From Candidatus Saccharimonadota bacterium (GTDB lineage: Bacteria; Patescibacteriota; Gracilibacteria; UBA1369; 2-02-FULL-48-14), in assembly GCA_016699145.1 (NCBI GenBank), contig CP064962.1, positions 990,001 through 1,022,000 of the forward strand: a DNA stretch of 32,000 nucleotides. The letters are read 5' to 3'. Of the stretch, positions 6,614-32,000 are shown piece by piece. Under the pieces are notes generated by a model. That model was not told where the DNA came from. It did not search any database and worked only from the letters and a program-made list of their open reading frames with translations. Numbering within the stretch: the first letter of the stretch is position 1; the number at the start of each line of letters is the position of its first letter. The position numbers were made by a program, and so were the translations under genes.

Positions 6614-6949
6614 TTAAGTGAGTCCAATCAAACACACGCCGCCAAAACTTAGAAAAGAGATCATCACACCGAACAAAACAAGGAAAATCTTTTTCTTGTT
6701 TTTGAAAAACAAAAATCCAAAAAGCACAGCTGCTATTCCACTCAAAGTGAAAAGCCAACCATTGGGAAGAGTGATACCAAAGACGCCCACAAAAAGCTGC
6801 AGTAAGGGTATCATCAATAAGAGCTCCAAGCGTGGACCTATTTGAGAAGGAAAGACAAGAAAATCTCCCAAAAGAGTTCCTAAAAAAGTAGCAGATAAAT
6901 AGACAATAAACAATGCAGTCTTTTTCCCAGAAAAACGAGTATTAAGCAT
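6614..6949 (-). CDS. Small hydrophobic membrane protein (111 aa), unknown function
   Basis: Track ORF with three to four hydrophobic segments. It lies 9 nt downstream of ppdK on the same strand. Confidence 0.5.
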   Translation of the reverse strand: MLNTRFSGKKTALFIVYLSATFLGTLLGDFLVFPSQIGPRLELLLMIPLLQLFVGVFGITLPNGWLFTLSGIAAVLFGFLFFKNKKKIFLVLFGVMISFLSFGGVCLIGLT

Positions 6950-6958
6950 ACAATAGAC

Positions 6959-9547
6959 TTATAAAGCTGCCTGCGCCGCCGCGAGTCTCGCAACCGGTAC
7001 GCGATAAGGGCTGCAACTCACGTAGTCGAGGCCGATTTCATGGCAGAACATCACAGAGCGAGGTTCTCCCCCATGTTCGCCACAAATCCCGATTTCAAGG
7101 CCAGGCTTCGTGCCACGGCCAAGTTTAACCGCCATACGCATCAGTTGCCCAACCCCCTCTTGATCGATGGTTTCGGTGGGGTTTTCCTCCAAAATATGGT
7201 GTTCGGTGTAGAATGGCAAGAACGCACCGGCATCGTCACGGCTGAGCCCGAAGGTCATCTGGGTGAGGTCGTTGGTTCCAAAACTGAAGAAATCCGCGTG
7301 ATTCGCAATTTGATCGGCCACAATACAAGCACGAGGCAATTCAATCATGGTGCCCACCTTCCAATCGAAGTCCAAAGGTTGCATTTCAGCCGCCACTTTT
7401 TCGACGAGCGCGCGCAGTTTTTTGAGTTCATTCACATGTCCCACAAGAGGAATTTCAATCTCCACAATGGGCTTGATTCCATCGAGCACCACAGCCTTCG
7501 CAGCTTCAAAAATGGCGCGGACTTGCATCTCATAAATTTCAGGCATCGTGATGCCCAGACGACATCCGCGGTGCCCCAGCATTGGGTTGAATTCGTGCAA
7601 AGAATCCACCGTTTTCTTCAAAGCTTCAAAATCCACGCCCATCTCTTGAGCCACAGCTTTGATCTTTCCATCCGTGTTGGGCAAAAACTCGTGCAATGGG
7701 GGGTCCAGCAAACGCACGGTCACAGGGTAACCGTTCATCACACGGAAAATGCCTTTGAAATCTTCACGTTGCACAGGGAGTAGCTTGGCCAAAGGTTCCT
7801 TGCGAGCCTCGGCATCGCGAGACAAAATCATTTGTCGCACATACATAATGCGATCTTCATCAAAAAACATGTGCTCGGTACGGCAGAGTCCAATCCCTTC
7901 AGCGCCCAAACGGCGAGCCACCTCAGCATCGTGAGGTGTGTCGGCGTTGGTGCGAATTTTGAGGCGACGCACCTCATCGGCCCACTTCATAAGAGTGTCG
8001 AAGTCTTCGTCGAGAGAAGCTTCTACGGTAGGGGCCGCTCCTGCTAAAATTTCTCCCGTCGCTCCATCGAGCGTGATCACATCCCCTTCTCGAAAAAGAT
8101 TCACGCCAATCATCAGCGTCTTGGCCTTATCATCCACAATCGCATCCTTACAACCCGCAATACAAGGCTTACCCATTCCACGAGCCACCACCGCAGCGTG
8201 ACTGGTCATTCCTCCGGTTGAGGTCAAAATGCCCTGAGACGCATGCATGCCATGAATGTCTTCGGGGCTGGTCTCCTTGCGCACAAGTATCACTTTTTCG
8301 CCTTCTTCAGCCAGGCGGTAAGCTTCGTCAGCACTGAACACCACCTTCCCCACAGCCGCCCCCGGGGAGGCCGGCAAGCCACGGGCCAAAATCTCGCGTT
8401 TAAAAGCCGGATCTATGCTGGGGTGCAGCAAGGCATTCAATTGGTTAGGATCGATGCGTTTAAGGGCCTCTTTTTGCGTAATCAGCCCTTCGTTCACCAT
8501 TTCTACGGCAATACGAACCGCCGCACGAGCCGTGCGCTTACCATTGCGCGTTTGAAGCATGAAGAGTCGGCCCTTTTCAATGGTGAATTCAATGTCTTGC
8601 ATATCGCGATAATGGTTCTCAAGCAAACGTTGCACTTCGTTGAGTTGTTCAAACATGGCGGGCATTTGGTCACGCAGCGCTGAAAGTTTTTCAGGTGTAC
8701 GAATTCCGGCCACCACATCCTCTCCTTGCGCATTGCAAAGGAATTCTCCAAAAAATTCTTTTTCTCCAGTGGACGGGTTGCGGGTGAAGGCCACTCCGGT
8801 TCCACAGTCATCTCCCATGTTTCCAAACACCATGGATTGCACGTTCACGGCGCTTCCCATGTTGTGAGGCATGCCATGCAAGTTGCGATACGTGATCGCG
8901 CGCTTTCCATTCCAAGACTTGAACACCGCAATGATCGCGAGTTCCAATTGTTCACGAGGATCTTCAGGGAAAGGCCTTCCGCTGTGTTCTTGCACGATTT
9001 GCTTGAAAACGGCCACAAGACGCTTCCAGTCGGCCGCATCCATATCAGTGTCCAGTTCCACCCCCTTTTCTTTCTTAGCCGCTTCCAAGGCTGCTTCAAA
9101 ATGATCGTGCGCAATGTTTAAAACCACGTTTCCAAACATGGTCACAAAACGGCGATACGCGTCGTAAGAAAAGCGAGGATTGTCGGTTTGTTCAATCAGA
9201 GCCTCCACCGTTTGATCATTGAGTCCCAAGTTGAGAATCGTATCCATCATTCCGGGCATAGAAACCTTCGCCCCAGAGCGCACACTCACCAGCAGAGGAT
9301 TCTTGGTGTCCCCAAAACCCTTCCCCATTTTATGTTCGAGTTCGTCCATCTTTTCGTCCAGTTCGTCGTAGAAGCCTTGTGGGAAATCCCCTTTTTCCAA
9401 ATAGTAGTTGCACACCTCGGTCGTGATCGTGAATCCGAATGGAACCGGCAATCCAAGGGCGCTCATTTCAGCGAGCCCGGCGCCTTTCCCTCCAAGGAGG
9501 TCACGCATGTCTTTGTTGCCTTCGTTGAATGCATAAATGTGCTTCAT
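6959..9547 (-). CDS. ppdK: Pyruvate, phosphate dikinase
   Basis: 862 aa. The N-terminus LLGGKGAGLAEMSALGLPVPFGFTITTE, the phospho-His loop GGMTSHAAVVARGMGKPCIAG, and the PEP-utilising C-terminal barrel (GLCRTEHMF, FFSFGTNDLTQ, ICGEHGG) are all present. Confidence 0.95.
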   Translation of the reverse strand: MKHIYAFNEGNKDMRDLLGGKGAGLAEMSALGLPVPFGFTITTEVCNYYLEKGDFPQGFYDELDEKMDELEHKMGKGFGDTKNPLLVSVRSGAKVSMPGMMDTILNLGLNDQTVEALIEQTDNPRFSYDAYRRFVTMFGNVVLNIAHDHFEAALEAAKKEKGVELDTDMDAADWKRLVAVFKQIVQEHSGRPFPEDPREQLELAIIAVFKSWNGKRAITYRNLHGMPHNMGSAVNVQSMVFGNMGDDCGTGVAFTRNPSTGEKEFFGEFLCNAQGEDVVAGIRTPEKLSALRDQMPAMFEQLNEVQRLLENHYRDMQDIEFTIEKGRLFMLQTRNGKRTARAAVRIAVEMVNEGLITQKEALKRIDPNQLNALLHPSIDPAFKREILARGLPASPGAAVGKVVFSADEAYRLAEEGEKVILVRKETSPEDIHGMHASQGILTSTGGMTSHAAVVARGMGKPCIAGCKDAIVDDKAKTLMIGVNLFREGDVITLDGATGEILAGAAPTVEASLDEDFDTLMKWADEVRRLKIRTNADTPHDAEVARRLGAEGIGLCRTEHMFFDEDRIMYVRQMILSRDAEARKEPLAKLLPVQREDFKGIFRVMNGYPVTVRLLDPPLHEFLPNTDGKIKAVAQEMGVDFEALKKTVDSLHEFNPMLGHRGCRLGITMPEIYEMQVRAIFEAAKAVVLDGIKPIVEIEIPLVGHVNELKKLRALVEKVAAEMQPLDFDWKVGTMIELPRACIVADQIANHADFFSFGTNDLTQMTFGLSRDDAGAFLPFYTEHHILEENPTETIDQEGVGQLMRMAVKLGRGTKPGLEIGICGEHGGEPRSVMFCHEIGLDYVSCSPYRVPVARLAAAQAAL

Positions 9548-9623
9548 GGGTTGGGGAGTAAAAAGAGGTGATTTAAGGTTAGAATAGACAGCAGTCTAGA
9601 CAGCATGGACAGTCTTGTCCACT

Positions 9624-10871
9624 TTAAAGGGAACGGCGAGCTTTATAGGCCTCTTCAATACGACGCAGAGCAGAAATGAAAGCCGCTTCACGGAAAGTAG
9701 CATTGTACTTCTTCGCATTTGCAGAGATGTCCTGCCATGCACTGACCATAATGGGCTTGAGTTTTTCTTGAACCTCTTCGGCAGACCAGTAGTAATTGGC
9801 TTGGTTTTGCACGAGTTCAAAATAACTCACCGTCACTCCTCCGGCATTGGCCAAAATGTCCGGGATCACCGGCACTCCTTTACCTTTCAAAATCTCATCC
9901 GCTTCGGGGGTCACCGGTCCATTGGCAAGTTCCAAAATGACCTTGGCTTGGACAGCCGCTGCATTGTCTTTATGAACCTGGTTTTCAAGGGCAGACAAGA
10001 CAAGAATGTCGACATTCAAAGTGAGCAGTTGTTCATTCGTGATCACTTGGCTGTTCGCACCGGCTTCCAGGCAATCCGCCACAGAACCCTTAGACGCCTT
10101 GCCACTCATCACCATTGGAATATTGAGCCCCTCCGCTGCGTAAAGTCCACTCTTGGAGTCGGACACGGCCACGACTTTGAAGCCTTTCTCTGCCAAAAAT
10201 TTCGCCATGAAGGACCCGGCATTTCCAAAGCCCTGAATCGCCACCGTCAATCCCTCCGCTGCCTTGCCATTTTCACGCAAATATTCTTCCAAAATATAGA
10301 CTCCTCCTTGACTGGTTGCGGTGTCGCGTCCTTTGGAACCTCCGGCAGGCAAAAGTTTTCCCGTCACCACTCCAAGCACGTTGCGACCTTGAAGTTTGGA
10401 GTATTCATCGGCAATCCATCCCATGATTTGAGGAGTCGTATAAACATCCGGCGCAGGCACATCCACCTCGGGCCCAATAAAGGGAGCGATGGCACGGGTG
10501 TACTCACGAGTCATGGCTTCGAGTTCACGAGGGGAAAGTTTTTTAGGATCGACAACAATACCGCCCTTTCCTCCACCCAGAGGGATGCCCACCACAGCAC
10601 ACTTTAAGGTCATCCAAGCAGAAAGCGCCTTCACTTCCCCAAGATCCACATCGGGATGGAAACGGATCCCACCTTTGTAAGGGCCACGAATCGAATTGTG
10701 CTGGCAGCGGTAGCCTTGGAACACTCGCCAGGTGCCATTGTCCATTTGAACCGGCACAGACACTTCTAAAATGCGTTCGTGGCGACTGATGAGCTCACGA
10801 ACAGCGGGATGAAGCCCCATGAGATCAGAAGCCTTAGCAATCTGAGCCAGGGTGTTTTCGAAGAGCGACAT
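9624..10871 (-). CDS. gdhA: Glutamate dehydrogenase (Glu/Leu/Phe/Val dehydrogenase family)
   Basis: 415 aa with the catalytic region KGGIRFHP...LSAWMTLKCAVVGIPLGGGKGG and the Rossmann motif IQGFGNAG. Confidence 0.92.
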   Translation of the reverse strand: MSLFENTLAQIAKASDLMGLHPAVRELISRHERILEVSVPVQMDNGTWRVFQGYRCQHNSIRGPYKGGIRFHPDVDLGEVKALSAWMTLKCAVVGIPLGGGKGGIVVDPKKLSPRELEAMTREYTRAIAPFIGPEVDVPAPDVYTTPQIMGWIADEYSKLQGRNVLGVVTGKLLPAGGSKGRDTATSQGGVYILEEYLRENGKAAEGLTVAIQGFGNAGSFMAKFLAEKGFKVVAVSDSKSGLYAAEGLNIPMVMSGKASKGSVADCLEAGANSQVITNEQLLTLNVDILVLSALENQVHKDNAAAVQAKVILELANGPVTPEADEILKGKGVPVIPDILANAGGVTVSYFELVQNQANYYWSAEEVQEKLKPIMVSAWQDISANAKKYNATFREAAFISALRRIEEAYKARRSL

Positions 10872-14471: not shown

Positions 14472-17400
14472 ATGGATATCTCTTTCGTAACACGAAAGTT
14501 CCAACGTTCCATAGCTGGTCTTGGACTCGCAGCTCTTCTTGCGACCTCTGTTTTCACAGGGTCTGCATTGGCTGTAGTCTATCCTGATGTAGACAGCCAC
14601 AGTCCCTTCGCGGACCAAATCGGTGCTTTGTCTGATGCGGGAATCATGACCGGTTATGTAAACGGAAACTTCGGAGTCGGTGACACGCTTACACGTGAAC
14701 AGGCCGCTAAAATCCTCGTTCTAGCCTTTGCTACTGAAGTTGAGACCGATGCATCAGTTACTTGCCACGGCTCTTACTCCGCTTGGGCTGAGGATTACCT
14801 CGCTACAGCTAACCTTTACGGCATCCTCGAAGGTGACGGACAGGGAAACTGTAACGCTACCGCTTCTGTAACTCGTGCTGAATTCGCTAAAATGGCAGTG
14901 AGCGCCGCTGGCCTTTCCAATGATGGAACTATGGCTAGCGACTGGTTCTCTGACGTTCAAGACGGAGCTTGGTACGATTCTTACATGGGCACCGCTGTTG
15001 CATACAGCATCATGGGAGGTTATGAAAATGGCCGCATGGGCCCTGGTGACTCTATCACCCGTGGTCAAGCTGCTAAAATGACCTACAACGCCATGAACCC
15101 CGTCTACAATCCTCCGGTTGATCCTGGAGACGATGATGATGACGACGATGATGACGATGTACCTACCGAAGGCGGAGATCTTGAGGTGATTCTTTCTGAC
15201 GAAAGTTCTGAAGACTACACTTACTTCGCAGCAGGAACCAACGCTGAAGTTGCAGTATTCGAAGTTACGGCTTCTGACGAAGACGTACTCATTACTTCCT
15301 TCGCAGTGGAACTTGCTTCCGGAGACGCCGACTCTATCGTGGCTCTTGCTCTCTACAACGAAGAAGGAACTCGTATTTCTCGAGTGGACACTTCTATCGA
15401 CAGCGACGACATTGCTCGCATGACCATGCTTGAAGGAGGCTACACGGTTGAAGCTGGAACTTCTGAATTGTTCCGCCTCGTGAACACCTTCGACACCATT
15501 GTTGGGGGCGCCAATACCTCTACTCTCTACAGCTACGCTTTCGACTCTTCTATGATCGAATCCAATGCTGGAGCAGTAGAAGTTGAAAACGACCTCGTTA
15601 CGGGAATCTTCGGTCTTCTCGATGAGGACACTGGAGAACTTGCCGTAGACGACGGTGGAACTCTCTCTAGCATTCAAGTTGGAGAAACCAATGCAGTCAT
15701 CGCTTCCTTTGAATTGGAAGAGACCAGCAGCGACAAGGACGTATGGCTCTGGGGTATCAGTCTTGAGAACACCGGAACCGCTAACCTTGAAGATGCAGTG
15801 ACCGATCTCGCCCTTTACTGGGATGGAGACTGGGTGGCTGACGGTACTCAATATGGAGAATACATCTCTTTCCAAATGGATGAAGAGACGGCTCCAATGA
15901 TTGAAGCTGGAACCAACGAAGAATTCGAAATCCAAGCTAAGATCATCGGTGAATCCACCGAAGACGTGATTTTCAACGTTGAAGAAGCTCTCGATGTGCT
16001 CGCTAGCGACGAAGACGACAACAACGTTGCCGTTAACGTCAGCGCTTACGCAGGAACCACTGTTGAAATTGAAGCAGGTGCTGTATCCGTTGTTGGATAC
16101 GACGCCGTCTCCGACAAGTTCCGCCCTGATCGTCAGGATGTCGAACTTGGACGCTTCGAAGTCACTCCCGGAACCGATGGTCTCGAACTTGAAACCCTCA
16201 ACATTGACTTCGACATCACTTTAGGTTCCAACACTGGAACATGGTATGTTTCCGATCTCTTTGAGAACTTTGCTGTAGAGTTGAACGGAACCAACTATTC
16301 CATGGACCTCAATGGTGCTGAAGGAACGGGTGAAGAATACACCGTTGATTTGGACAGAACCCTCACTGAAGGAACTGTCTACGAATTCGTTGTAATGGCA
16401 GACACTTTCTCCACTACTGAAGCCGACGCCAATGGAGGAGTGATCGTGGATTACACGACCTTCACCATGGACATGGCTCTTGAAAACCTCGGAGATGGAC
16501 TTTCTACAGACGGTCTCGTTCTCAGCGAAGTTGCTGACAACAACCCCGTTACTGATGTGACGCCTTCTACCGTATCCTTCAGTCAACTTGAAGGAGAAAC
16601 GGCTGGAGTGGCCATCAACGTGGTATCCATCTCTTCTGCTCGTAGCGTTGTAGTAGGAACCGAAGACGTTCTTGCTATGGAATTCGAAGTAGAAGAAGAA
16701 GCAGACGTTTCTGACCTCATCTTCTCTCAAGTAGCTATCGAAGAAGCATCTGGAACAGGTACCTTTGACAACACTGAAGTGAGTCAAGTATCGCTTTACC
16801 AAGTGAACTCTGACGATTCAGAAATTTTGCTCGACGCTGTGTCTGGAAGCCAACTCGCTTCCAACACCGCTGACTTCGATGACTTCGAAGTGATCATTGC
16901 TTCTGGAACCACGGAAACCTTCCGTGTCTACATCGACTTCGTTGATGATGACGCCAATGCTGCTCTCACTTTCGTTGCTGCCATCACTACCTACGATGTA
17001 GAAGATGATGACAATAACCAAGTCTACGATGCAGACGACACCAGCGCTGATGGAGACTTCAACTCTGAAGGGGATCAACCCACTTCTGCTCGTACCATCA
17101 CTCTCGTAGCTTCTGGTATTCTCTACGTTGAAATGGATAACGAAGACAACACCTACGACACTGCGAACCGTCGTTGGATCCAAATGGGTGAAGATGACGA
17201 AGGTCTCGCCGCCCTCGCTCTTCGTGCTGATAACGAAGATGTGACTCTGGAAGAATGGAAATTGATTCTCAACAGCACTGCTTCAACTGCAGTTACTGGT
17301 GACGCCGACGTTACTGCGGCAACTGCACTTGCATTGCCCACTGCTGTCGCTGGACAGTTGAAGAAGACCGGTGCCGCTGGTACCGCCTTCATCCCTGGAA

Positions 17401-18818
17401 CCGACGGTGCTTACACCGACGTGGACAATGATGGAACCGTAACTGCAGGGGACATCCGTCTCGTTGCAGGAGGAACCATTGCCAACGGTTACGGTTACGC
17501 CAACGGAACCACCGTTGCTGCTGGAGACACTGATCTCACAACTGCACTTGCATTACCCACTTCTATCGTTGGTCAATTGCGCAAGACGGGTGCTGCTGGT
17601 ACTGCCTTCGTGGTTGGAACCGATGCTGCTTACCTCGACGTTAATAACGATGGAACCGTAACTGCAGGGGACATCCGTATTGTTGAAGGAAGCACGGCTG
17701 CAACTGGACTTGATAAGCTCGGAAACCTTTCCGATGTCTTCTCAGATATCAGTATCTACAACGAAGACGGAGTCCTCGTTGGGACGAAGAGCCTCTCGAA
17801 CCAAACCAACATGATTTTGTTCGACTCTACTTCAACGGAATTGTCCGCTATGGTAGACACCACCACCACGTACTACATCACTGGAGATCTCAACAACTAC
17901 GGTGAAAACTACGTTGGTAACCTCTACTCCACTCCGACAGTGGGGGTAGGTTCAGCTCTTAGTACTAACCTCTCAACCGTAACAGCAGGATTCCAGGCCA
18001 ACCTTGGATGGACCGTCACTGCCGTTGAGGCAACTGGAGACTCCTCCAATGCAGCCCTCGACGAAAATGGAAACGGAGACAGTACTGAAGCTGCTGGAGA
18101 AGTCGCTTACGGTTCTACCACTTCTGGTAGCCGTGCAGACGATGACGCTACACCTTTCACAAGCACTTCTGAACTCTTCGGTTACATTGCTTCTGAACTC
18201 ATCGAAGTTGAACTCTTAGAAGAAGCAGAAGGAGTAAGCGTCTCTTCCGATCTCGGTACCGGAACGATGAACCTTGGAATTGTGGCTATCACCAACAATT
18301 CTACAGAAAACATCGAAGCTGATGGAACCGATCTCAAGACTCAACTCGAAAGCATTGCTTTCCAAGTCAACAAAAACACCGACTTAGTTATTGATACCCT
18401 GACCATCGAGCGTATCGGTGGAGTTGGCTCCACTGTTGCCGGAAATGTTGTATTGAACTCGAACCAAGCTGCTGCTACCAGCGCAAGTGCCCTCTCCGCA
18501 GGCGAGACCAACACAACTGTGCTTAGATTCTTGGACCTTGACGGCAGCGCCGGTTTTGGCACGGACGATGAAATAGCTCCTGGTGAAACTGCTTACTACC
18601 TTGTACAAGGTAACGTAACCGCTTTGGGCGCCGGTGCTTCCGATGACTTCATTGAGCTTTCAATGGAAGATCTCATGGACACCTCAACTAGCCAAAATAG
18701 TGGAGATGGTAACGTACACTGGTACGACAGTTTGACCACTGGGGTTACTCAGCGCTCTGCTGTTTACATGGGAAGTACCACCGACATCGATGCCGTTCGT
18801 GTTGCTGAAATTGACTAA
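14472..18818 (+). CDS. Secreted, highly acidic SLH-domain surface (S-layer-like) protein, 1448 aa
   Basis: A signal peptide (ends GSALA/VVYPD) is followed by three S-layer-homology repeats (about nt 14577-15117), including FADQIGALSDAGIMTGYVNGNFGVGDTLTREQAAKIL, YLATANLYGILEG...VTRAEFAKMAV and YMGTAVAYSIMGGYENGRMGPGDSITRGQAAKM. A D10 linker (15129-15158) leads to about 1200 aa of D/E/T/S/G-rich repetitive modules. A strong terminator lies right after the stop. Confidence 0.85.
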   Translation: MDISFVTRKFQRSIAGLGLAALLATSVFTGSALAVVYPDVDSHSPFADQIGALSDAGIMTGYVNGNFGVGDTLTREQAAKILVLAFATEVETDASVTCHGSYSAWAEDYLATANLYGILEGDGQGNCNATASVTRAEFAKMAVSAAGLSNDGTMASDWFSDVQDGAWYDSYMGTAVAYSIMGGYENGRMGPGDSITRGQAAKMTYNAMNPVYNPPVDPGDDDDDDDDDDVPTEGGDLEVILSDESSEDYTYFAAGTNAEVAVFEVTASDEDVLITSFAVELASGDADSIVALALYNEEGTRISRVDTSIDSDDIARMTMLEGGYTVEAGTSELFRLVNTFDTIVGGANTSTLYSYAFDSSMIESNAGAVEVENDLVTGIFGLLDEDTGELAVDDGGTLSSIQVGETNAVIASFELEETSSDKDVWLWGISLENTGTANLEDAVTDLALYWDGDWVADGTQYGEYISFQMDEETAPMIEAGTNEEFEIQAKIIGESTEDVIFNVEEALDVLASDEDDNNVAVNVSAYAGTTVEIEAGAVSVVGYDAVSDKFRPDRQDVELGRFEVTPGTDGLELETLNIDFDITLGSNTGTWYVSDLFENFAVELNGTNYSMDLNGAEGTGEEYTVDLDRTLTEGTVYEFVVMADTFSTTEADANGGVIVDYTTFTMDMALENLGDGLSTDGLVLSEVADNNPVTDVTPSTVSFSQLEGETAGVAINVVSISSARSVVVGTEDVLAMEFEVEEEADVSDLIFSQVAIEEASGTGTFDNTEVSQVSLYQVNSDDSEILLDAVSGSQLASNTADFDDFEVIIASGTTETFRVYIDFVDDDANAALTFVAAITTYDVEDDDNNQVYDADDTSADGDFNSEGDQPTSARTITLVASGILYVEMDNEDNTYDTANRRWIQMGEDDEGLAALALRADNEDVTLEEWKLILNSTASTAVTGDADVTAATALALPTAVAGQLKKTGAAGTAFIPGTDGAYTDVDNDGTVTAGDIRLVAGGTIANGYGYANGTTVAAGDTDLTTALALPTSIVGQLRKTGAAGTAFVVGTDAAYLDVNNDGTVTAGDIRIVEGSTAATGLDKLGNLSDVFSDISIYNEDGVLVGTKSLSNQTNMILFDSTSTELSAMVDTTTTYYITGDLNNYGENYVGNLYSTPTVGVGSALSTNLSTVTAGFQANLGWTVTAVEATGDSSNAALDENGNGDSTEAAGEVAYGSTTSGSRADDDATPFTSTSELFGYIASELIEVELLEEAEGVSVSSDLGTGTMNLGIVAITNNSTENIEADGTDLKTQLESIAFQVNKNTDLVIDTLTIERIGGVGSTVAGNVVLNSNQAAATSASALSAGETNTTVLRFLDLDGSAGFGTDDEIAPGETAYYLVQGNVTALGAGASDDFIELSMEDLMDTSTSQNSGDGNVHWYDSLTTGVTQRSAVYMGSTTDIDAVRVAEID
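17298..17700 (+). repeat. Intragenic tandem duplication (219/225-nt units) encoding Ca-loop-like DxDNDGTVTAGD modules
   Basis: Unit 1 is GDADVTAATALALPTAVAGQLKKTGAAGTAFIPGTDGAYTDVDNDGTVTAGDIRLV. Unit 2 is GDTDLTTALALPTSIVGQLRKTGAAGTAFVVGTDAAYLDVNNDGTVTAGDIRIV. The 30-nt stretch gatggaaccgtaactgcaggggacatccgt is identical at 17430-17459 and 17649-17678. Confidence 0.85.
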
Positions 18819-22053: not shown

Positions 22054-24015
22054 TTATATACTACAGGATTTACAAAACTCGCTCAAGGTCATGAACTCTA
22101 GGCCAAAGGTTTCCTTCAGCAGGCTGAGTTTTTTAGCCACTTCCGTGAACGAAGCGCCATCGCCAAATTCAAGACTGTTCCACTCAAAAATAATGAACGG
22201 CTTCACGCCATTTTGTTTTTGATAATTGCGAATACGATGCAGAGTTTCCAACCACTCTTTGTCTGAAAGACGGAGCAAAGTTTCCACATTCATGCGCACG
22301 ATTTTTCCAAAAGGAAGGCCATAACGCCACACAATCATAGGGTCGGGATCTTCCGTGATGGGCAAGCAGTCGAACCCCAATTCATGCGCCGCTTCCAAGT
22401 CCTCTTCATCTGGGGGAAGGGGAGCTTTGAAAAAACGCAGCGCATTCAAGCCCAGAGCCGTGACTGCATCACGAGCCTCTCGCAAAGCCTTCTTTTTAAG
22501 AGGCATGCTCAGCCATTCTTTTTGCAAAAAATATACGCCCATTTCATGCCCACTTTCGCTCAAACCGCTGAGTTCTTCGCCAAACGATTCCAATAAATCG
22601 GACGGCATAAAAAAAGTGCTGGGCATATTCCATTGAGCTGAAAATTCCGAATAGCGCTCCAAAAAAGGCAAGAGCAAAGAGTCTTCATGCGGCAGTCCGG
22701 AACTTTCTTGCAAGAGATCGACAGTCATACAAAATTGAAAAGGCACTTTTTGATTGGAATGCTTGCGATAGATGCGCGAACGCAGCAAGGCACAAGGCAA
22801 AGTAAAGGGGCTGAGTAAAGTGTCTTTTTGAGCCATTTTTCTCAGTGCTCGCTCTTGAATCACACGTTCATAAATGCGCAGCATTTTCTCCAAAATCAAA
22901 TCCCAATTGTATTCTTGCATCACCAATTCGTAACTGCCCTGGCCCAAGCGCTCCAATGAAGGATTGCTGGCAAAATGCTCCAAATAAAAAGCCATTTCAT
23001 TCACATCGTCCGGTTCCACCAAATGTCCGTTGAGTTTTTCTAAAACCAATTTTTTCAAATCCCCCACTTGAGTCGCCAAAATGGGCAAACGCGCGGCGCA
23101 GGCTTCCAGCACTGCAAAAGGGAGGGCTTCCAACCGAGAAGGCAAAACAAAAAGATCGGAGTTTTTATAAAGATGAATCAACGCTTCACCTTGCACCAAG
23201 CCATGAAACCGGATGTATTTTTGAATGCCCAATTTATCAGCCAAACCTTCGAGCATGGCCCGGTCGGGGCCCACGCCCGCCAAATGCAATTGAAAATCTT
23301 TGTGCGACTGAATGAATCCATTGCTCTCAATCACTTTTTGAGTGGCTCTAAAAAGCAGATCCAATCCCTTGGCAAGATCCAAACGCCCCACATAAAGCAC
23401 ATTGAATTTTTCAGGATCTTTTTCGGCTTCCACCGCATCAAAAGGAGCGGTGTCCACTCCATAAGGCACCACCATCACATTTTCATTCACGTTGTTGGCT
23501 TTCAAAAAGGCTTCTCCAATACTGAGCTGCTGACTGTATTTCGTTTCCAAAAACATCACGCGATGCACGATTTTTCTCAAAGTCCAACTGCGATCAAACA
23601 CATGGTTGGCATGCACGGTGAGCAAGGTGGGCACACCCGTAAACCAAGATGCGGCCTTCATTGCAAAAGCAGAAGTGGCGGTATGAGCATGGTAAAGGCG
23701 ATATTTTTTACCTGCAAAAACAAGCGCTAAAAACACGCGCAGCACATACCACAGTTGCATAAGATGGTTCCAAGGATGACTGGCAAAACCGATGCGTTTC
23801 ACACGAATGGCTTCCGCATCTTCCACGGCCCTTTCTTCAGTCGTCAGTTTTCCTTGAATGGCACGCGTAAAAATATCCACTTCATAGCCGTATTCACGGG
23901 CCAAGGCTTCTGAAAGTTTAGCCGCATACACTTGCTCGCCCGTGTGCACCGGGAACCAAGTATCGATGAGCATGGCGATGCGCGGCTTTTTACGGACAAT
24001 TTTTCGGATTTCCAT
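22054..24015 (-). CDS. Two-domain protein: N-terminal GT4 glycosyltransferase fused to a divergent polysaccharide-deacetylase-like (NodB/CE4-like) C-terminal domain
   Basis: 653 aa. Residues of about 1-390 are GT-B/GT4 ([18 protein letters not shown]..., [33 protein letters not shown]). Residues of about 420-650 have NodB-like landmarks in order ([30 protein letters not shown]), but the canonical DD and HxxxH metal ligands are not conserved. Confidence 0.7.
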
Positions 24016-28339: not shown

Positions 28340-28828
28340 TTATAATTCTTCGAGCGCTTCTTCCGAAATCAAAGTCTGCCACGCAAGAATGGCCACGCCC
28401 ATCACAATAAAAACGTCGGCTAAATTGAAAGTGGGCCACCAATAAACTTGGATGAAATCTATAACGTAGCCGTAATGCACGCGATCGATCAGGTTTCCAA
28501 TCGCGCCAGCAAAAATGAACGCCAGAGGCAAAAGATGACTTTTATGCTTCCATAAACAGTTTTGCACCACCACATAAAAACCGAGCATCAAAATACCAAG
28601 AGTTAAAAAATAGGTGCCCCAAAGTGGCATGTGAAAGCCAAAAACCAACCCTGAATTGTGAGAAAGATTGAATCCAAAGTCCACCCGTTCGCCAAGAGTG
28701 AGCTGTGTGTTGGCCCAGTTTTTACTCAGTTGATCCAAAACCAAGCACAGTAAAGTGATGGGAGCAAAAAACTTCCAAACTTGATCCAATTTCTTTGCCG
28801 TTTTTTGAGAGGAAGCGGAGTGTTTCAT
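28340..28828 (-). CDS. lspA: Lipoprotein signal peptidase (signal peptidase II)
   Basis: 162 aa with four TM segments and the conserved NSGLVFGF, GAIGNLIDR, VIDFI and FNLADVFIVMG motifs. Confidence 0.9.
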   Translation of the reverse strand: MKHSASSQKTAKKLDQVWKFFAPITLLCLVLDQLSKNWANTQLTLGERVDFGFNLSHNSGLVFGFHMPLWGTYFLTLGILMLGFYVVVQNCLWKHKSHLLPLAFIFAGAIGNLIDRVHYGYVIDFIQVYWWPTFNLADVFIVMGVAILAWQTLISEEALEEL

Positions 28829-28838
28829 GACATCCTTA

Positions 28839-28992
28839 TAGAGGCTATCTCAAAAAAAGACCAGAGTATTTAGGACGGCACTGATTTCGTGCCCGTCCAT
28901 CCACTCTTAAAGGCAAGAACTGGATTATTTTGCTTACAAAAGCTTAAAATCCTCTGCGTTCTTGCTCTTTCCTTTTTTTGAGATAGCCTCTA
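28839..28992. repeat. 154-bp element bounded by perfect 21-bp inverted repeats (MITE-like or long regulatory hairpin)
   Basis: TAGAGGCTATCTCAAAAAAAG (28839-28859) is the exact reverse complement of CTTTTTTTGAGATAGCCTCTA (28972-28992), with 112 bp between them. There is an inner imperfect hairpin GGACGGCAC...GTGCCCGTCC. If the outermost TA on each side is a target duplication, the repeats are 19 bp. Confidence 0.5.
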
Positions 28993-29045
28993 GTCAAAAG
29001 CCAAAACGCAGCCAACCCCAAAGTCCAAAAGCGCCATCAAATGTC

Positions 29046-29074
29046 TTGCTCAAACCTTAAAAAAGATGTATAAT
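29046..29074 (+). promoter_or_regulatory. Sigma-70-like promoter for the His-rich gene
   Basis: TTGCTC (29046-29051), a 17-nt spacer, then a perfect TATAAT (29069-29074), ending 20 nt before the ATG at 29095. Confidence 0.4.
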
Positions 29075-29094
29075 GTACAGACTTAAATAAAACC

Positions 29095-30003
29095 ATGTCA
29101 GCACCCGCACCCAGCCCGGCACCGGACCACCCTCCCGCACCTGAAAATGCTGGAGCCAATCCTCCCGAAGGAGCCCCTCATGCCCCCAAAGGACCGGTAA
29201 ACAAGATGACCAGCGACTTCAAACGACTGATTAAAGACGTGTGGGGTTTTGGTAAAGAGACTGAATCCAATGGAGAAGGATGGAGCACCCTTGGCAAAGT
29301 GGCCGCTGGAACAACAGCAGCTGTTGCAGGCGCAGGTTTACTTACCGCAGCGGGGCTCACTTACGCCACCGTAAAAGTGGCAGAAAAAGCACCTACAGTC
29401 GCCCAAAATCTGCTTGCAGGAGCTTCTGAAATGGTGGGCAGGCCGTTTGTAACGGCAGGGGCAGGATTTACTACTGGAACCAAGCTCTTAGAACCACCCG
29501 AATATCAAAAACTAGAAGGATGGACAGCTCCATGGAAGTTGCTCAAGAATACCCTGAAAGCAACTAAAGATTTAACACGTTTGGCTTCTGGACTGGTTGC
29601 CGGGACAGCAGGCCTTTTATATGGCGTGGCTGCTGGAATCGGAGATGGATTGCACAAGGCAGTGGGAGGAGGGGGTGGAAAATTCCCAACGCCCAAAGCC
29701 TTTGGCGGCAGTACGAAAGGAACCTCACATGGAACACAAGAACATCCAGCAGGCCATGATGATCACGACGGACATGGTCACGATGAAAACGGGCATGAGG
29801 CTCACGACGCTCACGCAACAGAAGGCCACGGAAGCCATGGACACACAGATGCCGCGCATCCAACTCCTGCTAATGACACTCATCACGATGCCCACGCTCC
29901 TGCTGAAGGCGGTCATGGGGAAACTCACGGACATGAGGAAAAGCACGGACACGATGCCCATGCCCCTGCTCATCGTAAGCCTGCTCACAGAAAAGCAGCC
30001 TAA
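29095..30003 (+). CDS. Hypothetical protein with Pro/Ala-rich N-terminus, two Gly/Ala-rich hydrophobic segments and a His-rich acidic C-terminal tail
   Basis: 302 aa. The tail (nt of about 29719-30000) has 24 His in about 94 residues (HDDHDGHGHDENGHEAHDAHATEGHGSHGHTD...GGHGETHGHEEKHGHDAHAPAH). Hydrophobic stretches are LGKVAAGTTAAVAGAGLLTAAGLTYATV and LASGLVAGTAGLLYGVAAGIG. Confidence 0.7.
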   Translation: MSAPAPSPAPDHPPAPENAGANPPEGAPHAPKGPVNKMTSDFKRLIKDVWGFGKETESNGEGWSTLGKVAAGTTAAVAGAGLLTAAGLTYATVKVAEKAPTVAQNLLAGASEMVGRPFVTAGAGFTTGTKLLEPPEYQKLEGWTAPWKLLKNTLKATKDLTRLASGLVAGTAGLLYGVAAGIGDGLHKAVGGGGGKFPTPKAFGGSTKGTSHGTQEHPAGHDDHDGHGHDENGHEAHDAHATEGHGSHGHTDAAHPTPANDTHHDAHAPAEGGHGETHGHEEKHGHDAHAPAHRKPAHRKAA

Positions 30004-30025
30004 TCCTTAAAAAGTTAAAATAAAT

Positions 30026-32000
30026 ATGGGACAAGCAGCACGAAAACTCGACGGCTCAAGAGAGGTGCCCGATGCAGTGCCTGGTTCAGATCGCAGGAAC
30101 CCTAGGCTTGATGAGATGAGAGGAGACCTTAAGAATCGTGTTCAAGATGTAATGGATAGAATGAAGCCCGCCAATGACGACGGTGCTTTTAGAGAAGAAG
30201 CATCTCCCGCAGCAGAGGCGGGTGGAGGACATGGACATGGAGCTGCTACCAAGAAAAGTAAAAAGCCTACAATTCCCGAGTTGGGAGATGAAACGATTGC
30301 TGATCTCATTGAAACAGGAACAACTGTCCGTGATTTTTACAGAAAATACAGAAAAGGAGAAGTCACTACTCCTGATATAGCTCGTCTTTTCAACGACGCT
30401 TTGGATACTCTTGGTTTGGATAAACTGAGAGCCGGAAGCAATGTATACGCTTGGCTCATTGGCCTGGCGTTAGGAATTCCAAACCATCCTCCGGAAAAAA
30501 TAACGCCAAACTATACCGATTTAACTGGACAAATTTTAGGTTTTCATCCAGATGAAGACAATCCACAATCGTACCACCACAGCGTAGAAGGTCTTATGGC
30601 GACAATAAATGAGATGGATTTACACAGACACTATAGTCTCTTCTTTCATCAGCCCAACTTTACTAAGGCCCTAAGCACTGCCAAAGGGCAAAAAAAAGCA
30701 AACGAACAGTTCTCAAAATTATTTGGACCGGATATCGAAACTCGAGCCCAGTTTTTAAATGAGTCTACGCAAGTCTTACTCAGACTGGGCTGTCACATCA
30801 CCCCTGGACCTAATGCCGCAGATCCAACAGTTGGAGAACATATACATATTCACGACCTTCGTAATGTTCACGCCAACCATAGCCTCCACACTGTTGTGCA
30901 AGCGATGCAAAATGCTCGTCAATGGGTTACTGAGGCCAACGTAGCTCAAATTGCAGAACCCGCTACTGAAGATGTGAAACTCAGTAAAGATATGCAAAAG
31001 TTTGGAGACACACTCATGGAGCATGTGAAAGGGAATACAGGTTTAGTCGTACAGTTCTTAGGCAACATAGAACCATTAGCTGCTTACGAAAAGGCCTTTC
31101 ATGCTCTTGCAAGCGATCAAGCTCTAGAAGAAGGAATGTATGAAGAGCCCGATGCAGTACGTGAACAAATTTGCCAGCTCTTTAACTTCTCGCCTAAAGA
31201 AAGAATCACCGCTGACGACCTCAACAGTTTCACTGAAGCACTGATAGGCCCCACACCTGCTCCAGCAACTGCTCCTTATCCTCTAGACCCAGACAACGGA
31301 GGAGCCTTAGGCCTATTAAGTGCAATCCCAGCAACGGATACTGTCACACGGGCAAAATGGGCTGCAATCAGGACTCGCATCAACGAAGCACGCGCTCGTT
31401 TATTAGCCACACCGACTGGGGCCACTCTTCCAGCTACCCGTTTGGGAGTGCTATTCCCACCAAAATCAGAGACCATCGACTACGCTAAATTTGGAAATCA
31501 ACTCGGAAAGGCAGTACGTGGCAAAACAGGGGTCAACCTTCGAAGAGCTCGTTCAGCCTTTTTACGTGGATGGGAACGAGATGAGTTCAGAGATCACTTT
31601 ATAAATCTTATGGATCCAACTCTCCTTACAGCCGTCTTGGATGGGACAAAGACCGATAAGGATGCACTCAAAACACAAATTGAAGAAGTGACAGGAGTAA
31701 AAGTCACTCGTATGACCCAGGCCTTATTTAGGAGTAGAATTCTAGCAAAAATGAATGAAATCGGAGATGGAACTCCAGGCAATGATGTAGATCCCGATGT
31801 AAGACTTAAACAAACGGCACTGAGAGCTATGTTATCACGACTCGCAAGAACAGTGCTTCCAAGCATTGACCCACTTTACCAAGAAGAAAGTTTGGAAAGA
31901 AACCTAGGAACCACCGTCAACGCAGCAACCCCCGCAAACCTTTCAGGAATTTTCGACAAACTCAATGCTGGCTTCTTTGTGCGCAATTACGGTTTACTCA
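30026..32000 (+). CDS. Large hypothetical protein, at least 658 aa, open at the right window edge; no recognised family
   Basis: It is absent from the supplied track because it is edge-truncated. I translated frame 2 from ATG 30026 (first start after the in-frame TAA at 30008) to 32000 and found no stop, with the frame checked at 31016-31024 and 31982-32000. It begins MGQAARKLDGSREVPDAVPGSDRRNPRLDEMRGDLKNRVQDVMDRMKP and starts 22 nt after the His-rich gene on the same strand. Confidence 0.75.
   Translation, partial: MGQAARKLDGSREVPDAVPGSDRRNPRLDEMRGDLKNRVQDVMDRMKPANDDGAFREEASPAAEAGGGHGHGAATKKSKKPTIPELGDETIADLIETGTTVRDFYRKYRKGEVTTPDIARLFNDALDTLGLDKLRAGSNVYAWLIGLALGIPNHPPEKITPNYTDLTGQILGFHPDEDNPQSYHHSVEGLMATINEMDLHRHYSLFFHQPNFTKALSTAKGQKKANEQFSKLFGPDIETRAQFLNESTQVLLRLGCHITPGPNAADPTVGEHIHIHDLRNVHANHSLHTVVQAMQNARQWVTEANVAQIAEPATEDVKLSKDMQKFGDTLMEHVKGNTGLVVQFLGNIEPLAAYEKAFHALASDQALEEGMYEEPDAVREQICQLFNFSPKERITADDLNSFTEALIGPTPAPATAPYPLDPDNGGALGLLSAIPATDTVTRAKWAAIRTRINEARARLLATPTGATLPATRLGVLFPPKSETIDYAKFGNQLGKAVRGKTGVNLRRARSAFLRGWERDEFRDHFINLMDPTLLTAVLDGTKTDKDALKTQIEEVTGVKVTRMTQALFRSRILAKMNEIGDGTPGNDVDPDVRLKQTALRAMLSRLARTVLPSIDPLYQEESLERNLGTTVNAATPANLSGIFDKLNAGFFVRNYGLL

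Follow-up and report, generated by a model that had tools for sequence, protein, structure and literature searches.

A conserved gene pair upstream of ftsW in a candidate-phyla-radiation bacterium: a possible two-part membrane-associated scaffold with histidine-rich segments

A 32,000-nucleotide stretch of DNA from a Candidatus Saccharimonadota bacterium (contig CP064962.1, positions 990,001 to 1,022,000 of the forward strand) was analyzed; this whole stretch is called the window and positions are counted from its first letter. Near its end it carries two adjacent genes, one for a histidine-rich protein of 302 aa and one for a larger protein whose reading frame is cut by the window end. The larger protein belongs to a family of tandem-repeat proteins, and the repeat family and its predicted fold lie beyond all databases searched. 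The preferred reading, to which a probability of roughly 0.4 is assigned, is that the two genes encode an abundant, two-part membrane-associated scaffold that is clipped together by histidine-rich segments. Candidate-phyla-radiation (CPR) bacteria are uncultured, much of their proteome is without assigned function and their cell biology is almost unexplored.

A tandem-repeat protein family and its histidine-rich partner

In the original prediction, frame 2 was read as open from ATG 30026 to base 32000 and the open reading frame (ORF) was noted to be absent from the supplied list. Both statements hold, as 658 codons follow without a stop and the ORF is missing from the ORF lists because the frame runs past the window end, such ORFs being unlisted. 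A search of 5.8 billion proteins retrieved the full-length product, P0001, which is 100% identical over the 658 aa and is named 'hypothetical protein IPG41_05730 [Candidatus Peregrinibacteria bacterium]' at NCBI, where its contig measures 1.34 Mb. With its 749 aa the protein is not 'very large', as had been supposed. Nor is it an orphan, since a profile search of 1.84 billion cluster representatives, from which the family size was taken, yielded 24 proteins at E≤1e-3 and 16 at E≤1e-10. These 24 representatives measure 122-1564 aa and many of them were matched in several stretches. Some family records are labelled Peregrinibacteria, Peribacteria or Gracilibacteria; one representative is from Candidatus Gracilibacteria, and the contig of the closest relative is from Candidatus Peribacteria. 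Three homologues at 46-60% identity were found in the 5.8-billion-protein search and a further one at 39% in the profile search; all are full length with an undisrupted frame. In an alignment of P0001 with its close homologues (four sequences), the mean column identity is 68%. Because start and end are conserved as well, the large ORF is a real gene. The upstream gene ends 22 nt before ATG 30026, as described earlier. The features of the pair are the following.

29046-29074, forward strand: sigma-70-like promoter, TTGCTC (29046-29051), 17 nt, TATAAT (29069-29074), 20 nt before the first ATG
29095-30003, forward strand: partner ('anchor') gene, 302 aa, with a Pro/Ala-rich N-terminus, a Gly/Ala-rich hydrophobic module and a His-rich tail
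29287-29382, forward strand: hydrophobic Gly/Ala-rich segment 1 of the partner, aa 65-96, TLGKVAAGTTAAVAGAGLLTAAGLTYATVKVA, maximum Kyte-Doolittle value over 19 residues (KD19) 1.46, homologues 1.53-1.95
29572-29652, forward strand: hydrophobic Gly/Ala-rich segment 2 of the partner, aa 160-186, KD19 maximum 1.50
29704-30000, forward strand: His-rich C-terminal tail of the partner, 24 His in 99 aa, ending AHRKPAHRKAA
30026-32000, forward strand: first 658 of the 749 codons of the repeat-protein gene, which continues past the window end
30221-30241, forward strand: N-terminal tail motif GGGHGHG of the repeat protein, aa 66-72, with H69, G70, H71 and G72 invariant in the four-sequence alignment
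30506-30751, forward strand: repeat copy 1, aa 161-242, 'HH' variant with SYHHSVEGL, E 1e-15 against the family hidden Markov model (HMM), 2.7e-8 without close relatives
30836-30889, forward strand: His cluster EHIHIHDLRNVHANHSLH in the linker between copies 1 and 2, of the HIHIH..HANHSLH type
30986-31222, forward strand: repeat copy 2, aa 321-399, E 1e-16, 2.5e-8 without close relatives, modelled with a pLDDT of about 90
31475-31726, forward strand: repeat copy 3, aa 484-567, E 1e-19, 7e-13 without close relatives, modelled with a pLDDT of about 90-97
31898-32000, forward strand: first part of repeat copy 4 (aa 625-694 of the full protein), which continues past the window end, E 2e-9, 2e-4 without close relatives

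The repeats were defined by an iterated HMM that was seeded on aa 471-600 of P0001 and converged on a 78-residue core, IDYDNFGDQILELVDDKALEAFLRGFNSAAFRRKFRYLLDPARLDAALKGDPEGREELKKQLANLFGLKGGTVTAAEL. This core is present in 113 copies in 25 proteins, with 3-9 copies per protein and a spacing between copies of 120-211 aa (median 141). P0001 has four. All of them were recovered by an HMM made from 94 copies of distant members, i.e., with close relatives left out, against which the best of 200 shuffles of P0001 scored 3.5 bits. The original prediction saw no structural motif in the protein, which holds insofar as no known family matches, but the four tandem cores were overlooked. The longest family member, P0019/P0028 (L014:8001-12695), has nine repeats and a C-terminal extension (aa about 1400-1564) with a weak match to DUF4256 (E 5e-4) that the other members lack.

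An AlphaFold model of the whole of P0001 from the four-sequence alignment was unusable (pLDDT 42.5). Modelling of aa 268-596 from an alignment of 37 non-overlapping two-repeat windows across the family resulted in a pLDDT of 87.4 and a pTM of 0.69. The repeat unit of about 140 aa is predicted to be a compact bundle of 8-9 short helices of 4-22 residues each, and the modelled units are linked by a Pro-rich stretch of low confidence. In agreement with the earlier statement that the protein has no long hydrophobic segment, no 19-residue window of P0001 reaches a Kyte-Doolittle value of 1.2. Moreover, a scan of P0001 and five close homologues by hydropathy revealed no signal peptide or hydrophobic N-terminus. 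Since signal peptide and hydrophobic segments are lacking, P0001 is presumably cytoplasmic.

Database searches returned no relative of known function. P0001 has no Pfam match at E≤1, and none of another 16 family members, to which E cut-offs of 0.01-1 were applied, matches EzrA or any other division family in Pfam; the partner protein is likewise without Pfam match, and neither of the two proteins has one in NCBIfam. Against PHROGs P0001 gives only noise (E 0.014) and against PADLOC nothing, and tblastn against phages and plasmids found no match. Unlike phage, plasmid or defence genes, the pair has a fixed location in all loci examined. P0001 hits nothing significant among the PDB sequences, and Foldseek of the repeat model against PDB and BFVD gave no match, the best E-value being 0.29.

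A profile of two repeats does show a borderline similarity to myosin essential light chains among the PDB sequences (E 1.4e-3 to 0.02). The matching segment is a helix-loop-'I(D/N)Y..F' stretch resembling the end of an EF-hand loop, and in this respect the short helix-loop-helix with its I-(D/N)-Y-x-x-F signature is like that of EF-hand proteins. The family might on this basis be an array of degenerate EF-hand domains, similar to calmodulin or myosin light chains, that binds calcium or a target helix. This explanation is hardly credible. An hhalign comparison with calmodulin gave a probability of 1.5% over a 10-residue match, and only one of the 37 windows matches a Pfam model of this type (EF-hand_SWAP70_N, E 0.035), with none of the 37 matching the canonical EF-hand models. 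The top 50 Foldseek matches of the repeat model contain no EF-hand protein, and the four-helix fold of an EF-hand pair was not found in the repeat family. Calcium-ligand positions are, unlike in EF-hand proteins, not conserved: the equivalent of Glu12 is mostly K or N (consensus IDYDNFG) and the loop varies in length.

Positional counterparts of the partner protein are 31-36% identical to it and share the Pro/Ala-rich N-terminus, a Gly/Ala-rich hydrophobic helix with 'GWST..KV.G', the 'GWTAPWK' motif and the His-rich tail, of which the AAAHHRK..AA ending is kept in close relatives. Segment 1 is a probable membrane helix, judged from its hydropathy; segment 2 is weaker or absent in L001, L004 and L010. 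Altogether, membrane association of the partner is likely. Distant relatives encode a protein of 799-1206 aa at the partner position. An HMM built from the C-terminal module of four long partners alone matches aa 72-192 of the window partner with an E-value of 9e-13 in the first iteration, and for this reason the 302-aa protein is regarded as a short representative of a larger family of partners. The long partners (L008:5288-7981, L010:5553-7991, L013:622-4242 and L014:5588-7987) additionally carry N-terminal helical repeats of their own, with a period of about 150 aa, that bear no relation to the 78-aa core. In each long partner, the first 60 positions of the HMM are found 3-4 times.

Split and fused forms of the pair and their histidines

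The genomic context was studied in ten loci with family members at 16-60% identity to P0001. In 7 out of 7 loci where both genes were seen, the partner gene and the repeat gene are adjacent and co-directional, at a distance of 9-28 nt. Two further loci encode one polypeptide, P0026 (1422 aa) and P0009 (1354 aa), and have no separate partner gene; in both cases the gene begins directly after lspA. The partner module precedes the repeats in these proteins, at aa 574-720 of P0026 (E 2.7e-4) and aa 343-486 of P0009 (E 4.9e-5), each E-value dating from before the protein in question was added to the HMM. A further match of P0009 (E 1e-4) is to the N-terminal portion of the long partners. Pairwise comparisons of the partner with the fused proteins by BLAST, phmmer and hhalign gave low-complexity or weak matches only, and an iterated HMM was needed. 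The sequence evidence for fusion is moderate; with the positional evidence, which carries weight, the fusion is convincing. Split and fused gene pairs are a classical sign of physical interaction.

A conserved, near-consensus promoter motif precedes the pair. The pattern TTGnnn-17-TA(T/G)A(A/C)T is found 5′ of the first gene in the window and in L001, L010, L011, L013 and L014, with a distance of 20-30 nt to the first gene across loci, while L008 has TGATATACT in its place. A consensus scan overlooked the window promoter because its -35 hexamer fits just three of six positions. Both genes of the pair have A-rich leaders without Shine-Dalgarno sequence (29080-29097 and 30004-30028). The leaders in L001, L003, L004, L011 and L013 are A-rich as well, and relatives often read ..AAAAACGT ATG. 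It had been proposed that the two genes form a functional module behind one promoter and that their co-occurrence in related genomes should be checked. The pair is present in all seven split loci and fused in two, the promoter is conserved, and the proposal stands. In addition, no confident family or fold match and no frameshift was encountered, and the genes always co-occur.

The distribution of histidines follows the split and fused states. Both proteins contain His-rich tracts, as do Hpn and HypB/UreE-type proteins. The two clusters pointed out earlier in the repeat protein, GGGHGHG and EHIHIHDLRNVHANHSLH, lie where they had been placed. In the latter, H274, H276, H282, H285 and H288 are invariant in four close homologues. 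Distant relatives have His clusters at the same two places, which makes them a positional feature of the whole family; Gly/His clusters equivalent to GGGHGHG occur in P0006, P0007, P0008, P0016 and P0019. Copy 1 has, moreover, a conserved HH (SYHH / LDHH). The linker between copies 1 and 2 holds 5-16 His in most split-type members, as opposed to 0-3 in all other linkers. Over the seven split pairs, the partner tail consists of His for 12-31% (24% in the window) and the N-region of the repeat protein contains 3-28 His. In the two fused proteins, the linker between copies 1 and 2 has 3 and 1 His, and the junction counts 0 His in 148 and 2 His in 172 residues (0-1.2%). Because the His-rich elements lie on both sides of the break and on the first domain and are dispensable once the two chains are fused, we infer that they constitute a docking interface. 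From these nine loci, docking probably takes place through bridging metal ions.

Taken together, the two genes would form one conserved, strongly promoted bicistronic unit for a two-part, non-enzymatic structural complex. Its first part, the 302-aa protein, would be inserted in or associated with the membrane by its Gly/Ala-rich hydrophobic module and end in the His-rich tail. The second part, the 749-aa protein, would reside in the cytoplasm and string together four compact all-helical domains that belong to a family not yet described; its first domain would be a His-rich head consisting of the GGHGHG tail, the HH in copy 1 and the HxHxH..HxxHxxH in the linker between copies 1 and 2. This head would dock on the His-rich tail of the first part, probably via bridging metal ions. 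The complex is proposed to be abundant and to lie at the inner face of the membrane, where it could serve as a scaffold or spacer with a length set by the number of copies (3-9). More speculatively, it may act on envelope growth or division, given its site beside ftsW and murG.

High abundance is suggested by the promoter and, possibly, by base composition. The original prediction described the region as AT-richer. Its GC content is 0.44-0.465, compared to a window mean of 0.484, but the upstream gene is GC-richer (0.54), and the description holds in part, the clear signal being at third codon positions. Here the GC content (GC3) of the pair is 0.36-0.39 versus 0.47-0.59 in 11 other genes of the window. 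In all seven related loci, GC3 of the pair is likewise the lowest or near-lowest, with values of 0.31-0.46 versus 0.36-0.69 for other genes, ftsW and murG included. Recent horizontal transfer was considered as the source of the AT-richness and rejected, because the bias is common to syntenic orthologues in seven other genomes and because there is no phage or plasmid match. Low GC3 fits codon selection in an abundant protein as well as AT-biased drift in fast-evolving genes.

Several observations weigh against the scaffold reading. Instead of high expression, weak constraint on genes that evolve fast under AT-biased mutation could account for the low GC3. The hydrophobic segments of the window partner reach KD values of only 1.46-1.50, leaving membrane insertion uncertain, and segment 2 is missing in L001 and L004; were both segments true membrane spans, the loss of one would flip the tail across the membrane. 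The E-values of the fused modules were obtained with a database of about 38 sequences and concern biased, Gly/Ala-rich segments, and when the partner was compared to the fused proteins by hhalign, the probability was only 10-25%. Fused examples number only two, which may not be independent. Finally, there is no homologue of known function, the proposed function being deduced from architecture and context.

Neighbourhood of the pair and alternative explanations

In the ten loci the gene order is lspA (on the opposite strand), partner gene, repeat gene, ftsW, murG and a GT1 glycosyltransferase gene. The window ends before ftsW, and the adjacency of ftsW and murG was read in the related loci. Downstream of GT1, related loci contain two small genes, a MiaB-like radical-SAM gene and alaS. 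The position of the pair raises the question of a role in division, for which support comes from position only and which is possible. The corresponding alternative states that the pair is a scaffold of the divisome or elongasome like EzrA or DivIVA, in which the repeat protein is tethered by the partner, co-transcribed with ftsW-murG and organizes septal or lateral peptidoglycan synthesis in a lineage without the usual accessory division proteins. In 9 out of 10 loci the pair is indeed located directly 5′ of ftsW-murG-GT1 in the same direction, with gaps of 35-99 nt, and a helical repeat array with a membrane anchor recalls the general design of EzrA. However, ftsW has a conserved promoter-like motif of its own within the gap, TTGCCT-17-TACACT, in L001, L003, L004 and L007. 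TACACT also precedes ftsW in L008 and L014, where both gaps contain hairpins. In L010, two minus-strand genes are inserted between the pair and ftsW. Neither protein nor its relatives match known division families (FtsL, FtsQ, FtsA or ZapA) in Pfam or NCBIfam, and the repeat proteins are far more divergent than their neighbour, with 16-60% identity among loci versus 66-95% for FtsW.

Outgroups point in the same direction. In L016 (FtsW 48% identical), the slot between lspA and ftsW is empty (6848-7418), and in L066 (FtsW 57% identical) it is occupied by two small unrelated proteins without repeats (8533-9917), meaning that sister lineages have an ftsW that works in the absence of the pair. The two small L066 proteins have N-termini (MSG..H..) that look, by eye, similar to those in distant members of the family. 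None of 80 metagenome loci from an FtsW scan carries the repeat family. Furthermore, these genomes are collinear all the way from metK to alaS, and because the whole neighbourhood is collinear, adjacency to ftsW is little informative. Together with the separate ftsW motif, the inserted genes of L010 and the empty slot of L016, this collinearity also counts against the speculative link of the preferred scaffold to division. A divisome or elongasome scaffold is doubtful, and the pair is best read, from gene order and sequence, as a clade-specific innovation inserted beside ftsW with its own promoter. The promoter-like sites of ftsW (L001:12292-12345, L004:2807-2860 and L007:2396-2467) have a -35-like hexamer that overlaps the last codons of the repeat gene (..TLP stop), an overlap that may explain part of the conserved C-terminus of the repeat protein.

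The histidines allow for another explanation, in which the pair stores, buffers or delivers Ni, Zn or Co and the repeats are a mere carrier of His sites. The partner tail with its 24% His and the conserved clusters at three positions of the repeat protein are in keeping with such a function, and His-rich proteins such as Hpn and the tails of HypB, UreE and SlyD bind Ni or Zn. The fused forms, however, drop the His-rich segments and retain everything else, which means that the conserved core of the function lies elsewhere than in the His tracts. These tracts differ in length and place, whereas the array of 3-9 copies is kept, and there are no genes for urease, hydrogenase or metal transporters in the window or the ten related loci. 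This makes metal handling quite improbable. The rapid divergence, variable copy number, lineage restriction and signs of strong expression are, on the other hand, traits that surface proteins typically show. CPR bacteria commonly live as episymbionts (PMC9698310, PMC4736985). The repeat protein could accordingly be imagined to evolve fast at the cell surface or in contact with a host, where it would serve adhesion or symbiont-host interaction after non-classical export. This is very improbable, as the five close homologues have no signal peptide or hydrophobic N-terminus and Pfam scans found no SLH, sortase or other surface-anchoring domain in the family. In addition, the window already encodes an SLH protein elsewhere: the forward-strand gene at 14472-18818 specifies a protein of 1448 aa in which a dockerin-like stretch accompanies two S-layer-homology domains (E 2.8e-28) and which is probably this organism's cell-surface (S-layer) protein.

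A bolder form of the scaffold reading is unlikely in our estimate. It envisages a new membrane skeleton, found so far only in genomes labelled Peregrinibacteria, Peribacteria or Gracilibacteria, with a modular 'beads-on-a-string' protein of a new all-helical fold, a spacer or ruler of 3-9 domains, and a reversible histidine/metal 'zipper' to a membrane partner for which fusion substitutes in some lineages. If it were true, assembly would respond to metal or pH by way of the zipper. Irrespective of this, one 'hypothetical protein' has become a defined family with a repeat unit, an obligatory partner, signs of high expression and a confident structural model without known analogue, and the split/fused pattern points to the His-rich segments as a specific interaction surface. 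Should metal-bridged docking be true, it would offer a simple, testable way of reversibly assembling a membrane scaffold and a lineage-specific structural element. Should it not be true, the family would still merit a Pfam-type entry, the novelty then residing in the protein family and its fold as searched.

Some other features of the window and the related loci were observed. The intergenic region between lspA and the His-rich gene measures 266 nt in the window, compared to 92-132 nt in six related loci, and contains a 154-nt element (28839-28992) between perfect terminal inverted repeats of 21 nt (28 nt at 89%), TAGAGGCTATCTCAAAAAAAG. Its appearance suggests a MITE-like insertion or a structured RNA; positions 28700-30100 have no Rfam match and the window has no second copy of the element. 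A Fic-domain gene lies between aroE and lspA in L001 (7487-8530) and L010 (3914-4990) and is lacking in the window and the other loci covering this interval. On the reverse strand at 22054-24015, the window encodes a GT4 glycosyltransferase of 653 aa with Pfam domains on aa 25-357 and an unmatched C-terminal part of about 300 aa.

Comparison with known systems

The nearest analogue is EzrA, which is reportedly a spectrin-like, membrane-anchored regulator of cytokinesis in Firmicutes. Like EzrA, the repeat protein would be cytoplasmic, all-helical, built of tandem repeats of roughly 100 aa or more, held at the membrane and lineage-specific. There is, however, no sequence similarity and no match to the Pfam EzrA family, and no spectrin or EzrA structure occurs among the Foldseek matches of the repeat model. 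The unit described here is predicted to have 8-9 short helices, whereas EzrA has three long ones, and a spectrin-type triple-helix repeat of about 100-110 aa was not found in the family. The candidate anchor sits on a polypeptide of its own or, in the fused forms, on an internal module, and P0001 itself lacks an N-terminal transmembrane anchor. EzrA moreover has no His-rich segments.

With regard to the histidines, well-known metal-binding examples are Hpn, the tails of HypB, UreE and SlyD, and the Gly/His-rich, Zn-crosslinked jaw protein Nvjp-1 of Nereis. The pair shares with them Gly/His and Asp/His tracts (GHGHD, GSHGH and GGHGHG); by analogy, such tracts should bind Zn or Ni and might link the two chains to each other. 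There is no homology to these proteins. Pfam and NCBIfam matched no HypB GTPase or UreE-type domain in the pair, and no gene for a Ni enzyme or its maturation lies in the window or the ten related loci. In contrast to the known examples, the tracts of the pair flank a conserved folded architecture and vanish upon fusion.

Lastly, the pair resembles the so-called Rosetta-stone pairs, in that genes that are adjacent here are one gene in other genomes. It differs from them in that the split state adds His-rich segments on either side of the break. To our knowledge, no split/fused family with additional His-rich segments flanking the break has been described.

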